From Escherichia coli (GTDB lineage Bacteria; Pseudomonadota; Gammaproteobacteria; Enterobacterales; Enterobacteriaceae), in assembly GCF_003334355.1 (NCBI RefSeq), contig NZ_QOWP01000043.1: DNA of 26,147 nt; one strand, written 5' to 3'. The position numbers and the translations under genes were made by a program. The notes beneath the pieces were generated by a model that saw only the letters and a program-made list of their open reading frames with translations, was not told the origin of the DNA and ran no database searches. Below are positions 11,058 to 19,108 of this stretch, piece by piece (positions within the stretch are counted from its first letter, which is position 1; every line of letters begins with the position of its first letter).

Positions 11058-11086
11058 AAAAATGGCGCAAATACAGCGCCATTTTT
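11058..11086. terminator. Rho-independent terminator downstream of yagU (potentially bidirectional)
   Basis: Perfect 11-bp stem AAAAATGGCGC / GCGCCATTTTT with 7-nt loop AAATACA, flanked by an A-run and a T-run, starting 14 nt after the yagU stop. Confidence 0.65.
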
Positions 11087-11621: not shown

Positions 11622-11933
11622 AATTCACCAGTACAGCTATAAATCGTAAAGAGAACAGCGGTACATCGTATGTAAGAACGTACCGCGGTTGGCTGGTGTA
11701 CTTTCGATAGTGTGAGTATTGAATGATTTCCAGCCGTTACCGATTTTACGTACTAATTCGTGAATAAACCACTCGTTAGCAGGCTGCCTGGTACCTTTCC
11801 GTGTCTCCTGAACACTATTGTGTGCATATGAGAAAGCCCATCGTTACAGGTGATATTGACGATCGCTTCCACATCATTTAAACGATTTTTGGGGCTCTGA
11901 GGTGGAATTCTTCCCTCGACCGATGGATAAGTC

Positions 11934-12644
11934 TTAGTCCGCCGAAGGGGGCTTAGCCGGACAGGAATCGCTAATCTTAATGAATTTGTCGTTATAGACC
12001 AGATAATGATTCCCCGGCTGACGTAACTCAGGCTGATGAACCACGTCTCCCGGACGTAGATACCAGGCATCGCCTTCCTCTTCGGTCGAATCACATCCTG
12101 GCTTAATCAGTAGCTTAAACCATGTGTTGCCAGTGTTACTTACCGTTCCTGTCACCTTGTCGAAGGACCATTTAAACTGAACCTGACGTGGTCGTACTAC
12201 CAGAATGGTATCCATCACCACCACCGGCTCCGTGCTGACCTCGCCGCCGGTTGGGCTACGTCTTGTCTGGTTACGAGTGGGGACCTCGCGAAATGAGACC
12301 CGGTAGTAGCGCTCGCGGTTATCCCGTGGCCCATGATAGTAAAATTTAAAATACTCGCTCTCACCAGCCTGCAACGCCAGCTGGCGGGGGGCGAAAAGCA
12401 GTTCACCATCCACCGGTCGGGTGCGCAATTCACTGCTGCCCGGGCTATCAATAGCACTGATGGCAATACGGTATATCCGTGCGCTTTTGTTGTTATTCAC
12501 TACACGTTTGCTGACAAAGTCAGTCTCGGACGGCAGTGAAAAAGTCAGATTGCCGACCGAAATCGCCTGTGTCAAAGGTGCCGCCAGCATACAGACCGCT
12601 GTCAGCAGGGCCTTAGTTAATGTTACGCCACGTCGCCTGAACAT
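11934..12644 (-). CDS. ecpE: E. coli common pilus protein EcpE (MatF), chaperone-like
   Basis: Track ORF 11934..12689; I place the start at the internal ATG (12644), giving [27 protein letters not shown] (signal peptide) with AGGAGAG 6 nt upstream. Overlaps the 3' end of ecpD by 32 nt. Confidence 0.82.
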
Positions 12645-14256
12645 GAATCTCTCCTGAAGCGCTGACTTCGCCAAACCAGCCGTTATCATCTACCGTACGC
12701 AGCGAAATGGCGTTATCCATTGGAATCGAAAATTTGACTGTGGTCTTATCCATCTGCCCCACTTCGCCAGAGATATCAGTCCACGGTGTGGTCAGCCACA
12801 GCGCATCGGTCATATCCCGCCAGCTATCATCGCACCCGGCATCGTAGGTTTTTGTAGCTCCGTTGCGGGTAATAAAGGAAAGTGTCGCCGGGAACGGTAC
12901 TTTCGCCTTACCGTCATCGGAGCTGAAGACACAATAGGAGCGCCCGCCAATCACCTGCGCGGGTCCGGTCACCTTGATCAGCACTTCGTCGGCAGCTGTT
13001 TTACCGCTGGTGGTTACGATATAGCCGAAATCGAGTGCCGACTCGCCGCTGCCAACATATCCCTCCCGCGACGGTGTCTGAGTATATTCATCGGAGATAA
13101 TACTGATGCTGAAATCACGGGGTTTGATAATCAGCGTGTTGGAGGTAGAAAATTCATACCAGCCAGACTCCGGTGATGTGGTGTTCTGAAAGCGAAAGTT
13201 GAATAGATCTTTGGTGTTGATATCGCTGATCCCGAGGTTCACCATCTGCTTAAAGAAGTTGCTCGAGAAGAAAACATAGATCGAGTCTGCGCTCTTCATC
13301 TCGTTGAAGGTGTAGTAATAGGCGGTATTGCTCACCGGTTTCCATGAACTGCCATTCAGACTGAACTGCATATCGTACGCCCCGACGGCCGAGGCTAACG
13401 ACGAGTTGGCGATCGCCGGGAATATATGGATTGAGGTGTTGCTGAGTCCGTTTGTTTGCAGGGTATAGTTAACCATCTTACAACTTAATCCTGAACGGCT
13501 GCCGATGGTTTGCGTCCGGCAGTCGGCGTTCCCTTCGCCCAGAGTCGGTACTCCGTCGCTGTTGATAAATACTTCCGCCAGCGAGTGGGTATTTATCAAC
13601 CGTAGATTTGCTGCTTTCGTATGGGTGACGTTGCGAACATACCAGTTGCCGGAGGCCTGATCCTTACAGCGTGCGCCGCTGCTGGCGTCATAGTTCACAG
13701 AGGTCTGGCAGGCATTGATGGTCATTGTAAAGCTGCTGCCGACGGGCATTTGTTGCATATACTGGTAAAACGCGTCTGACAACATGCCGTGCATCCACTT
13801 CGCGCCGCCGCTGGTCACCGTCGCGCCATAAAATCCACTGGCGTCGGTGGTTTGCGGCAGGATAAGACTGGTGGTCATATTACACCCAGCGTACCAGTTG
13901 ATGCAGCGCAAGCCAGTTAAAGGAGATGAAACTGGTGAATTTTCCAGCCACATATCAAACTTCCAGTTGGTATAAAGGCCGGTGTTGTAACCGTTATCAA
14001 TGTAGCCGAGGCTTTGCTGATAGATGGTTCCTGAACCAGTGTATTTTAAACCGGTCCAGCGGTTGGCACCGGTCAGGCGCGGATCCAGCGCCCCGCCAGG
14101 AGTGACGAAAAAGTTGTCGTCTGAGTTGTTTTCGACAAACACAAACTCGCGTGCCGGTGCATCCGCCCAGGTTGTTTTGCTCACTGCCGCTCTGAGCGCA
14201 GTTACTGGCCAGATTAGCGCGAAAATTATCATCGTTATTAGTAGGTTAACTCTCAT
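12613..14256 (-). CDS. ecpD: E. coli common pilus tip adhesin EcpD (MatE)
   Basis: 547-aa [37 protein letters not shown]... with signal peptide; recognised as EcpD. Overlaps ecpC by 11 nt. Confidence 0.9.
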
Positions 14257-16771
14257 TCTCTTCTCCTGTCTGCGTCACCGCCGCCCACGATGAGAGGCCG
14301 CTGCAGACCACATCACCGACCCAGACGGCACCGCGCACCTGGTTGAGTTCCAGAGCCACTTCGCAGGTTTTATTGCCACTGTAGCGAAAATCGATAGTGG
14401 GGTATTTCTTATCCACGTCCATGACAAACTCGCCGTTTTCATCGGTTCGGGTTCGGCCGATATGGTTGTTAATCCGTGCGTTAGCCAGCAGTGTGCCGTC
14501 TTCCGCACGGATACGACCGGAGACGGTAACCATCTGCTTCACCTCTGGCTCAATGACAGCGACATTGCCTGGATAGAGAGTCAGACGACTTTTGCGGCCG
14601 CTGACGATATCGTAACTGTCGAGTGAGTTTTTGCTGTTCTGTAACTCCACCTCATATCTTCCATAGGGAGAGAGCGGGAGATAGTTACGCTTGCCGTTAA
14701 GCGGGAAAATCCGCCCGTTGATTTTGGCGCTGATCTGACCGTCGTCCTCCAGCCCGGTGTTGAATATCACCCCAGCGTTGCCATCAGTCCGCCCGCTGGC
14801 AGCAATGTTTTTACCCTGCCAGCCGACGCTGCCATTGGCGGTCAAGTTGGTATTGACGTAGCCGTCCGCCGCGCTATTGACGTTCAGCGTTCCGCTGGCG
14901 TAACGAGCGTCGAATTGTGCATACGCCCCGCCGCTGAGGGTTTTGTCATCACCGGTATCGCCGGAGATGGCACGTGACAGATTGGCACCAACAGTGCGAA
15001 TGGTTCCTTCATCAAACTGTTTGCGTGCTGACAGGTTTGCCATGGTGTAGCCGTTTTGATGAGTCATCCCTGCGCTAAACCAGTTGCCCAGTGGTAGCGA
15101 GAGATCGAGAGCGATATATTTTCCTGTATTGGCGTTGCTGTCGCCGTTGTTATAGCGCTGAATACCGGCCCGCAGGCCAAGCGAACCAAAGGTACCGCTG
15201 TAGACATTTTGATAGTAATCTGCCGTGTAATAATGGCTGTTGTAACGGCGGTCATCATTGTAGCTGATGCTGAATGTGCCCAGCTTCGACCACAGTGAGT
15301 TCAGGTTGAGTGTGCCGCCGATTGCACGGTTGTCGGCATCGCTACGTCGCAATTGATTGCCAATGCGGGTTTTTTCCTGATTAACCCACAGCGAACTAAA
15401 GCCTCCCGGTAGAGTGGCGCTGATGCTGCCGATGCTGCTCCATGAGCTGTCACTGGCCAGCATATTTTGCAGGTTAACGTTGATCGCCCCCCCAAGCGGC
15501 AGCGTCAGACGGGTTTCACCCACCGCCTGATTATCGTATCCATATCCCGTTGCCGCCCAGCTAAGCGTACTCAATGAGCCGGAGGTCGAGGCACCTGCTA
15601 GCCAACTCTCTTTAGCTGGTCGCGTCTTTTTCCCGTTTTCCGACCAGCGATCCATATGAAAGCTACCGCCCCATACCTGCCACGCCAGTGGTGCACCGAC
15701 GCCGCGCCCCCGGCTAAACAGCTTATTGACCCGCTGGGTGCGTTTGCTGATCACGCGACCGTTAACGATCACCTCAACTTCCACATCGTAAATCCCGTAC
15801 GGTAGACCCCGGGTATCCACTTCATGATTGCCCATAGTGAAGTTCTGAACGCTTAGTAGCCGCCCATCACGGGTGAGATGTACTTCGCCCGCCGCCGGTA
15901 AAAAGGCGATCACTGGCGTGGCTGACTGGCTGCTGTCGAAGATGGTGGAGCTGGCCTGGTTTCCCCAGGAAAGGCCGTAAATCTTCCCTGCTGAAATGGC
16001 GGTCATCGGCCCTAAGGACTGCAAGTTCCAGGTGTCGAGCATTCCACCGGCAAATCGGTGACCGGCAAAATCGCGTTCATACATCGCTTTATATAATTCA
16101 CTGTCCTGTTGACCGCTACCGATCCCGTACAGCGAGCCGTCGAGCACCACATGATGTTCGCGCAGTGCAGTAACGTTATTCAGCGACAGATAGCTGGATG
16201 TGTTGCTCCCGCCGTTACGCAACTGGTTGTTATAGACGCCCAAGTTATAGCTCAGATTACTGCTGAGGGTGTTAACACTGGACTGCCCGATGTCTTCGCT
16301 ACGTGAGCGTAGTACGGTGCCCAGCGCTTCGCGCTTGACCACTAGCTGCAGCAGCAGTTGGCGCAAGCTGAGATCCAGCTGCGCGTTGTCAGTCAGGGGG
16401 ATGGTAAGGGCCTCATTGAACGGGGCGTTGGCCAGAGCCATCAGCTGCTGTTGAGTTTGTTCGCTGACACTGGCGTTATCTTCACTCTCTTCCAGCTGTA
16501 TTTTCCGGATGCGTAGCTGTCCATCGTCCAGCCAGATAAAAGCGCTGCCGATTCGCTGATCGTCCTGGCGACCCTGGCTACCGGCGAGATGAATATAGAG
16601 CGGGACGCTCATGCCGTCCTGAAGCGCCTGACTGAAGGCCTGCGGAATAATCACCCCACCTATTTGCTGCGCACTTATGTCAGCAGCGCTGGCATCGGGC
16701 TGAACGAACAAAAAGACCATGCCGAAGGCAAACTGGGCTTTCAGTCCTGGGGAGAACCGTCGTAAAGGCAT
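14246..16771 (-). CDS. ecpC: E. coli common pilus usher EcpC (MatD)
   Basis: 841-aa [39 protein letters not shown]...; large, outer-membrane-protein-like composition; recognised as EcpC. Confidence 0.9.
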
Positions 16772-16796
16772 TGTCGTTATCCATCTGCACAGCTAT

Positions 16797-17465
16797 CTAT
16801 TTCACGGGAATGAACTTATCACCCTGCCAAAGTGCAACCCGTCCTTTGTTATCCGCCGTGTCCACGCGGGTAAAACGACGCGACTTGCCCGGCATCAGGT
16901 AGTAATTCTCTTTACACTCTTTACCATTGGCGGCTTTCAGGCAGGGGCCGTAGGCGAGGATCCGCAGCGTCGCATTTCCTGTATTTGTCAGGGAGCCGTT
17001 GGCGTACTGAAAGTGGTAGTTTGCCTGGCGGGGTGCGACGACCAGAATGGTGCCGATGCGGGCGGAAGCAGTGGCCACAGCGCTGCGGTTGGCATTATCG
17101 CGCTGTGCATCACTGAGGGCCTGATCAAACCAGACAATGCGGTAGTAGCGCTCTTTTTCATCTGCGGGTCCCTTATAGAAGAAGCGGATCACTTCGCTGG
17201 CTTGGGCGGGTAGCAGCAAGCTGGCGGGAGTGAGTAGCAACTCATCCGGCTTGTCCATTGAGATAACCTGCCCGTCGTCAAGCGGTGAAGAGAGCCGTTC
17301 GAGACGGATATTGATAAGGCGACCACTGTCGGTACTGTTTTTGATCGTTTTGCTCAGCGTGCTGCTGTCACTGTTCATAAACGATGATATATCGCCGACA
17401 TCCAGCGCCTGGGCCGGAGATATTCCGGAAAACAGCAGAGCGAGAGGCAGAAGGTGCTTTTTCAT
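16797..17465 (-). CDS. ecpB: E. coli common pilus periplasmic chaperone EcpB (MatC)
   Basis: 222-aa [32 protein letters not shown]... with signal peptide; recognised as EcpB. Confidence 0.9.
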
Positions 17466-17486
17466 AACAATTCCGTCCAGGAATAA

Positions 17487-17507
17487 AGCAGGGGGGCTAC
17501 CCCTGCT
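17487..17507 (-). terminator. Putative intra-operon attenuator hairpin between ecpA and ecpB
   Basis: 8-bp GC-rich stem AGCAGGGG / CCCCTGCT with 5-nt loop, followed on the mRNA (minus) strand by UUAUUCC; lies 16 nt downstream of the ecpA stop. Confidence 0.4.
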
Positions 17508-17522
17508 GGTACATCAGAGAGA

Positions 17523-18110
17523 TTAACTGGTCCAGGTCGCGTCGAACTGTACGCTAACGTCGCCGCTCCAGATGCCTTCCGGTAGAGTGCTGTAATCTGT
17601 TACTGCGGTGGTACCATTGGTGGTACCGCTGATGATGGAGAAGGTGAAACCATCCTGTGCGGTGGTACGATTGCTGGCATTGTAACCGTTAGCCAGCGGG
17701 CTAAGGTTGCCGCCCAGTACGCCGTTGGCGGTATCGATCATCACGGTATCGCCAGTTTTTTCGACTGCCGCGCCGTTATAATCCACGCCCACATTCAGTG
17801 TGGAACCTGAGGTATCCAACTGGGTTAATGTGTTGGTGATAAGACGTGAGGTCAGTTTAAAGGCGGTAGCCGTTGAGTCACCCTCGATAGCCACGTCAAA
17901 TAGACCTTTCTGTGAGTTAAAACCTTTAATGCCTTCGGCATACTGGAACGCCAGGCTACCGAGTGGCGTCACAACCAGCTTACTGGTGGTGTCTTTTTTG
18001 GCTGTTGCCGACCAGGTCGCTACAGCCTGAGCTGTTACGTCAGCAGCCTGCGCCACACCCATGCCGGTAAACACCGTTACCAGAGCTATTGCCAGAACCT
18101 TTTTTTTCAT
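17523..18110 (-). CDS. ecpA: E. coli common pilus major pilin EcpA (MatB)
   Basis: 195-aa [50 protein letters not shown]... recognised as EcpA. Confidence 0.92.
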
Positions 18111-18184
18111 TGCATTTCTTCCCGAGTTGAATTGAGGACGTGATGTCCCAGTGAGTCATTTTTTAAAACTAACTTGCCTGGAGT

Positions 18185-18796
<612 letters not shown>

Positions 18797-19081
18797 TTAC
18801 AGGTGCATTCAGTTTCCTTAGTAAACCGGAAGTAAATAAGATACGTAGTACATATCAATAAAGGTTAAACGAGATTAAGTTTAATTATTTTCGATTGGGC
18901 TTAAATTTATGTTTTTTTTCCCGATGAGTGTCAATATGTGAACGGAAAAGGAATTCAATGGTTAAGTCAATATTTAGAAAAACTGAAAATATTGCTTTTT
19001 TGATAAGAAGAAAAAGACATTTGGTTTCATAAGGTTATTGGCAATATAACGTTCAATTCTTACTTGCATTTTATATTGGTC

Positions 19082-19108
19082 AGGAACTTTGCCCTGAAGT
19101 GTTAGGAA
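19082..19108 (-). promoter_or_regulatory. TTCCT-N17-TTCCT direct repeat upstream of ecpR (candidate EcpR autoregulatory box)
   Basis: Plus strand reads AGGAA-N17-AGGAA (19082..19086 and 19104..19108), i.e. TTCCT-N17-TTCCT in the ecp orientation, ~300 bp upstream of the ecpR ATG. This matches the EcpR recognition sequence as I recall it. Confidence 0.45.

Follow-up and report, generated by a model that had tools for sequence, protein, structure and literature searches.

A conserved hairpin and U-tract between the pilin and chaperone genes of the Escherichia coli ecp operon is probably a leaky intrinsic terminator

Between the major pilin gene ecpA and the chaperone gene ecpB of the Escherichia coli ecp (mat) operon lies a G-C-rich hairpin followed by a U-tract. 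It is probably a leaky intrinsic (Rho-independent) terminator and, at the same time, a 3' stabilizer of the pilin mRNA. An earlier note on this DNA had described an 8-bp GC-rich stem-loop between the two genes at 17487-17507, followed by a short U-rich tract. The coordinates are exact, and the tract is described accurately, although it is imperfect (UUAUUCCU or UUUAUUCC, depending on where counting begins). The note gave no strand; the hairpin is on the minus strand, as is the operon that holds it according to the list of open reading frames and the RefSeq annotation. The window, that is, the whole stretch of 26,147 nucleotides analyzed (contig NZ_QOWP01000043.1), matches E. coli, and the 241 bases around the hairpin are 100% identical to K-12. 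RefSeq annotation marks nothing in the ecpA-ecpB spacer. The features of the locus are as follows.

18185-18727, minus strand: ecpR (matA), activator, first gene of the operon (RefSeq annotation)
17523-18110, minus strand: ecpA (matB/yagZ), major pilin gene (open reading frame list and RefSeq; Pfam MatB precomputed for orthologues)
17525-17523, minus strand: ecpA stop codon TAA
17508-17522, minus strand: linker of 15 nt from the ecpA stop to the hairpin
17507-17500, minus strand: hairpin 5' arm, AGCAGGGG
17499-17495, minus strand: hairpin loop of 5 nt, UAGCC
17494-17487, minus strand: hairpin 3' arm, CCCCUGCU
17479-17486, minus strand: imperfect U-tract UUAUUCCU, counted from the 8-bp stem
17487-17480, minus strand: U-tract UUUAUUCC, counted from the G-C-closed 7-bp core
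17472-17478, minus strand: GGACGGA, probable Shine-Dalgarno region of ecpB
16797-17465, minus strand: ecpB (matC/yagY), periplasmic chaperone, the first gene that would depend on read-through (open reading frame list and RefSeq)
14246-16771, minus strand: ecpC, usher, likewise expected to depend on read-through (open reading frame list and RefSeq)
12613-14256, minus strand: ecpD, tip adhesin, likewise (open reading frame list and RefSeq)
11934-12644, minus strand: ecpE, second chaperone, likewise (open reading frame list and RefSeq)

Of 5,426 complete E. coli genomes, 4,967 (>90%) carry the ecp locus, and many other Enterobacterales have ECP/Mat fimbriae too. EcpB, EcpC, EcpD and EcpE are needed for pilus assembly. 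All six genes are reported to form one operon with a promoter 121 bp upstream of ecpR (PMC10038029, citing Martinez-Santos 2012). As ecpBCDE have no reported promoter of their own, their expression requires read-through, and the interval from the hairpin to ecpB is too short for a promoter. Given a single promoter, no room for another before ecpB and the need for EcpB-E, any termination at the hairpin must be partial.

On the minus strand, 5' to 3', the 57-nt spacer reads UCUCUCUGAUGUACC-AGCAGGGG-UAGCC-CCCCUGCU-UUAUUCCUGGACGGAAUUGUU-AUG. The stem has 8 bp, six of them G-C (17507-17500 paired with 17494-17487). UUAUUCC follows directly on its 3' side, and the hairpin ends 21 nt before the ecpB AUG. 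The folding free energy, which the earlier note had proposed to calculate, comes to -15.0 kcal/mol when 33 nt are folded (z = -3.47). None of 200 dinucleotide shuffles folds as well; the full spacer gives z -2.0. Some MFE folds add an outer helix around the hairpin (UCUG.../...CGGA), with 3-5 bp formed across a large internal loop.

The element has the parts expected of an intrinsic terminator. The G-C-rich stem with its 5-nt loop is on the transcribed strand, and the U-tract counted from the core (UUUAUUCC) has U at five of eight positions, including all three proximal ones. In E. coli the tract is interrupted after these three U's and has CC behind it, which predicts a termination efficiency well below 100%. 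The tract ends 1 nt upstream of the first GGA in the ribosome-binding region of ecpB, so that a terminated RNA would carry ecpA and no translatable ecpB. At its other end, the hairpin is presumably placed just outside the footprint of a ribosome terminating at the ecpA stop. A bidirectional function was considered and rejected: on the plus strand the hairpin is followed by GGTACATC, without a T-tract.

In a terminator scan, the hairpin was the best minus-strand terminator-like site in 10 kb. The generic pattern occurs 15 times in these 10 kb, compared with 9.4 expected. Under strict criteria (a perfect stem of at least 7 bp with at least five G-C pairs, and at least five T in the next eight positions) only two loci were found in the 26-kb window, the ecpA-ecpB hairpin and a predicted bidirectional terminator at 11062-11082. 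By comparison, 0.14 strict hits per window arise in first-order Markov surrogates, and the corresponding expectation for one 57-nt spacer on one strand is about 0.00015. An Rfam search over 16500-19500 at a permissive E-value returned no family. The spacer does not behave as a member of the REP/BIME repeats; the 63-nt spacer sequence is found at a median of one and a maximum of two places per E. coli genome.

Loci for comparison were chosen from an EcpB alignment, 32 from a one-genome-per-species collection and three by exact protein look-up, and 31 could be scored. All 31 have a hairpin and T-run between the ecpA stop and the ecpB start. They represent about 15 genera, including Escherichia, Klebsiella, Raoultella, Enterobacter, Citrobacter, Phytobacter, Pluralibacter, Cedecea, Pantoea, Kosakonia, Serratia, Symbiopectobacterium and Morganella. 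The stems compared were those defined by a search for a G-C-closed core; over the 31 loci the median stem has 8 bp and -15.9 kcal/mol, with median distances of 16 nt between stop codon and core and 22 nt between stem and AUG.

Among 28 distinct junctions we found 27 distinct hairpin sequences. The stem is GGCAGAGGG/CCCUCUGCC in Phytobacter, GCAGGAGCGA/UCGCUCCUGC in Kosakonia, GGCGGG/CCCGCC in Serratia and Symbiopectobacterium, and GGGCAG/CUGCCC in Morganella, and one stem pair occurs as A-U (7), G-U (9) or G-C (7). The loops vary freely in sequence (UAGCC, CCCU, UUCU, GAAU, GUAA and others) and also in length. That the structure is kept while the sequence changes, with the loops free, argues for selection on RNA pairing and not on a DNA motif.

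Alignment-based tests agree with a conserved pairing. In a MAFFT alignment, 88.8% of the stem cells are paired, compared with 43-60% for the whole tested structure when the partners are slid, and none of 500 shuffles matches the observed pairing. Alignment to a covariance model gives 90.7% paired, compared with 57-72% after sliding; five pairs differ on both sides. Over the two alignments, at most one of 500 shuffles reached the observed pairing or covariation score. Among the loci searched, the covariance model found the element only at ecpA-ecpB junctions. The six most divergent junctions are out of register in both alignments, which makes both pairing counts conservative, and their hairpins were tested singly. 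These junctions, Serratia, Kosakonia and Pluralibacter included, form clean hairpins of their own (z -3.1 to -5.1), Morganella excepted. Within the well-aligned group covariation is modest because GCAGGGG/CCCCUGC is itself highly conserved.

Some genomes in the comparison carry unusual loci. Phytobacter massiliensis has two ecp loci (L021 and L029), with the stems GGCAGGGG/CCCCUGCC and GGCAGAGGG/CCCUCUGCC, and one Klebsiella MAG also has two separate ecp loci (L017 and L019), each with its own version of the hairpin. The presence of an individual hairpin at each locus suggests that the element is maintained in both paralogous operons. In Klebsiella indica (L006, 2745-3000) the ecpA-ecpB spacer has grown to 256 nt, against the usual 60 or so, through an insertion of about 200 nt that carries a REP-like GC-rich palindrome. 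The insertion divides the hairpin and duplicates part of it: the copy beside ecpA is intact and lacks a T-tract, and the one beside ecpB is degenerate and keeps the T-tract. Two further matches lie on very short, low-coverage contigs, one of 524 nt assigned to Terrisporobacter mayombei (L022; EcpB identity 99%) and one of 471 nt assigned to Prolixibacteraceae (L034; EcpB identity 80%). Both are most likely enterobacterial contamination of those assemblies.

The T-run is conserved as well. At positions +1 to +6 after the core, the frequency of T in the 28 distinct junctions is 0.93, 0.96, 0.79, 0.54, 0.89 and 0.79, compared with 0.30 in the remaining spacer positions. The U-tract has six or seven U in eight positions in Enterobacter, Klebsiella and Symbiopectobacterium; Enterobacter has U7, and Symbiopectobacterium reads GGCGGG-GUAA-CCCGCC followed by U7. 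To judge by these frequencies, the T-run is selected in its own right. Its conservation where the stem has been replaced points to a terminator rather than a mere exonuclease block.

The T-run thereby bears on the alternative that survives best, a pure mRNA decay barrier. Under this reading polymerases would not terminate in the spacer; instead, the full-length transcript would be cut by an endonuclease, and the hairpin would stop 3'-to-5' exonucleases, as in puf and malEFG. A 'processed ecpA mRNA' is indeed reported, with a stability that is raised by EcpR/MatA under inducing conditions (PMC5962669, citing Lehti 2013), and the hairpin readily suggests itself as the protected 3' end of this mRNA. 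Many E. coli operons use protective hairpins for differential decay, a feature conserved between species (PMC5927463), and the imperfect U-tract of E. coli would suit a barrier. However, a barrier needs no T-run, and one is strongly conserved even behind replaced stems, to the point of textbook terminators in several genera such as Enterobacter and Symbiopectobacterium. We therefore regard a barrier without termination as rather unlikely.

A different possibility is that the spacer controls translation of ecpB, with a helix between the U-tract and GAAU presenting or hiding the GGA of the Shine-Dalgarno sequence, possibly as a CsrA-type site, and the large hairpin being a mere neighbor. In 20 of the 28 junctions a GGA (in E. 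coli the first GGA of GGACGGA) lies exactly 10 nt from the ecpB AUG. A helix of 4-5 bp can form, with one C-G to A-U exchange between junctions; in E. coli it is a 5-bp mini-hairpin, AUUCC-UGGAC-GGAAU, with GGA in the loop (17466-17486, minus strand). GGA in a hairpin loop is a target of CsrA, which also binds the analogous fimA-fimI spacer. The helix is marginal and has weak covariation support, however (-0.1 to -3.4 kcal/mol, predicted in 11 of the 28 junctions, 66.7% paired), the conserved GGA is most simply the ecpB Shine-Dalgarno sequence itself, and the large hairpin overlaps neither this sequence nor the start codon. It is very unlikely that translational control is what the spacer encodes.

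The comparison with type 1 pili raises the further possibility of a small regulatory RNA. The MG1655 fimA-fimI spacer (L041, 2175-2209) is annotated as the sRNA FimR2 (b4838), so that in both of these chaperone-usher operons a short structured RNA occupies the spacer behind the major pilin gene. FimR2 is a 3' UTR sRNA processed by RNase E that binds CsrA and acts in trans, partly through CsrA. By analogy, the roughly 40-nt ecpA 3' UTR, from the stop codon to the U-tract, could act in trans, and the hairpin would supply its stable 3' end. Yet only 15 nt precede the hairpin and these are poorly conserved between genera, the UTR part contains no GGA, Rfam gave no match to this region, and the RNA is absent from the K-12 3'-end tables, the operon probably being silent there. 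The two spacers also differ in structure; that of fimA-fimI has no T-tract and folds no better than shuffles (z 0.03), whereas the ecp spacer holds a canonical hairpin and U-tract. Nothing points to a trans-acting product of the ecp element, and we give the sRNA reading very little credence. Taken jointly, a trans-acting sRNA of about 40 nt from the terminated 3' UTR or a CsrA-controlled GGA gate on translation of the assembly genes would still be improbable. If either were true, natural alleles, such as the stem mismatch found in 307 E. coli records, could retune pilus output or cross-talk with motility and biofilm formation.

Finally, that the hairpin is a chance palindrome or a DNA-level protein-binding site without RNA function is extremely improbable: the shortness of the hairpin and the ready occurrence of the generic terminator-like pattern in the region are in its favor, but the strict expectation for the spacer is minute, and the structure persists through changes of sequence with loops free in sequence and length.

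We therefore return to the leaky terminator. RNA polymerase starting at the ecpR promoter would transcribe ecpR and then ecpA. The G-C-rich hairpin would form in the nascent RNA while a weak rU:dA hybrid occupies the active site, and a fraction of the polymerases would release. The released transcripts would end just upstream of the ecpB ribosome-binding site and code for the pilin and not for the assembly proteins; the remaining polymerases would read through into ecpBCDE. At the 3' end of the short transcripts the hairpin would also block 3'-to-5' exonucleases, giving a longer-lived pilin mRNA. Termination and protection would both raise the ratio of pilin mRNA to chaperone, usher and adhesin mRNA, which fits a fiber built of very many EcpA subunits by few assembly proteins. 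Presumably 3' ends form at the hairpin, with a termination efficiency predicted to be well below 100%, and presumably the effect is shared in some proportion between termination and 3'-exonuclease protection.

The earlier note had suggested that partial termination here would give an excess of pilin transcript over the downstream genes. Structure, position, conserved pairing and the conserved T-tract support this computationally, and the literature contributes a single reported promoter, a processed ecpA mRNA and the pap precedent. That the hairpin sets the stoichiometry of pilin to assembly proteins is, in our view, well founded, and we infer it from these lines together.

Like canonical intrinsic terminators and intra-operon attenuators, the ecp element follows a stop codon and combines a G-C-rich stem (7-8 bp) with a loop of 4-5 nt and an adjacent U-tract. 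It differs from a canonical terminator in lying within the operon, with the next start codon 21 nt away, and not at the operon end.

ECP belongs to a different chaperone-usher clade from Pap, and the proteins are unrelated in sequence. The closest system is nevertheless pap of uropathogenic E. coli, where the order is papB regulator, papA pilin, terminator and assembly genes. The ecp layout is alike (ecpR-ecpA-hairpin-ecpB-C-D-E), with a single reported promoter upstream of ecpR. RNase E cuts the papBA transcript, leaving a stable papA mRNA that is protected by a 5' stem-loop and, at the 3' end, by an RNase-resistant terminator (PMC5927463 and PMC4546395; Baga et al. 1988, Bricker & Belasco 1999). 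The likeness would extend to a processed primary transcript, a stable pilin mRNA with a structured 3' end and pilin message in excess, and pap provides a documented precedent for what had been called a common design in chaperone-usher operons. Experiments have mapped all three pap elements (RNase E site, 5' stem-loop and 3' terminator), whereas the ecp hairpin is known here from sequence. We did not identify a pap-like protective 5' stem-loop in the ecpR-ecpA spacer, whose fold is no better than that of shuffles (z -0.05); this spacer does contain an AU-rich stretch of the kind preferred by RNase E and a marginal 5-bp helix.

Gene order in the cfa operon is unlike that of ecp, with the chaperone before the pilin. 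As an alternate chaperone-usher fimbrial operon, cfa may resemble ecp in a ratio set by mRNA stability; relative mRNA stability is reported to set its ratio of subunit to assembly proteins (a 1993 study, as cited in PMC5927463).

We found no description of the ecpA-ecpB hairpin, or of its conservation in the ECP clade, in the accessible literature. Papers about F9 fimbriae and PapB regulators contained no information about a terminator behind a subunit gene. The curated MG1655 Term-seq tables (Adams et al. 2021) contain no sense-strand 3' end at the spacer, which weighs neither for nor against the model given the poor expression of the ecp operon in laboratory cultures of K-12, and the TERMITe supplements do not mention ecp.

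The same Term-seq tables do hold a 3' end within ecpA on the opposite strand. A plus-strand hairpin of 12-13 bp followed by TTTTTT lies antisense inside ecpA (17724-17762), with a fold of -19.3 kcal/mol on the plus strand (z -2.95) and -11.4 on the sense strand (z +0.2). It coincides with the curated MG1655 3' end 310323 (+), which has about 1,100-2,240 reads (Adams et al. 2021), indicating that an antisense RNA ends inside ecpA. This RNA must start towards ecpB or in the spacer. The antisense hairpin and its T6 are well formed mainly in Escherichia and partly in Klebsiella.

Downstream of ecpE (11700-11934, minus strand) we did not find an intrinsic-terminator-like hairpin, so the operon may end by Rho or run into the next gene. 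The first strong minus-strand terminator past ecpE is at 11082-11062, beyond a ykgJ-family gene. This site is a perfect 7-bp G-C-rich palindrome on both strands (11062-11082), reading ATGGCGC...GCGCCAT TTTTAT on each, and it lies 18 nt after the yagU stop on the plus strand and about 210 nt after the ykgJ-family gene on the minus strand. By its sequence it is a textbook candidate for a bidirectional terminator between the convergent yagU and ykgJ.

Within E. coli, variation in the hairpin is concentrated in the loop. The K-12 spacer is exact in 3,120 of the 4,972 E. coli records with the locus, and an allele with one loop base less is found in 1,253 of 4,972, with unchanged stability (-15.0 vs -15.1). 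This loop indel is the sole difference between the two main alleles; a further variant has an extra C in the loop. A third allele affects the stem: T to A at 17490 (a U of the 3' arm on the minus strand) creates an A.A mismatch in mid-stem and weakens the fold from -15.0 to -9.9 kcal/mol. Exactly this allele is present in 307 of 4,972 records, about 6% of E. coli loci. Among the examples listed (L038, H36-H47), its carriers are mostly O157:H7 or cattle isolates, and some O157:H7 strains carry the K-12 allele. From its sequence, this allele is a putative natural variant of the terminator with a weaker stem.

Even the common E. coli hairpin ranks 26th of the 31 loci in stability; the d-score used for ranking serves for relative comparison only. 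Termination in E. coli could thus be weak, given this rank and the interrupted U-tract. If the terminator reading is true, the allele at -9.9 kcal/mol is predicted to shift the ratio of pilin to assembly mRNA relative to alleles at -15.

A specialist would not be surprised by a partial terminator behind the major subunit gene, which is a classic arrangement. What the analysis adds is the cross-genus conservation argument and a natural allele with a weaker stem, and its value for annotation lies in extending a design known from pap to the ECP clade, which is unrelated in sequence. Several papers note an unexplained post-transcriptional control of the production of ECP/Mat fimbriae, and a conserved leaky terminator would give this control a concrete element. 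It would also explain how one promoter can yield much pilin and little usher or chaperone.
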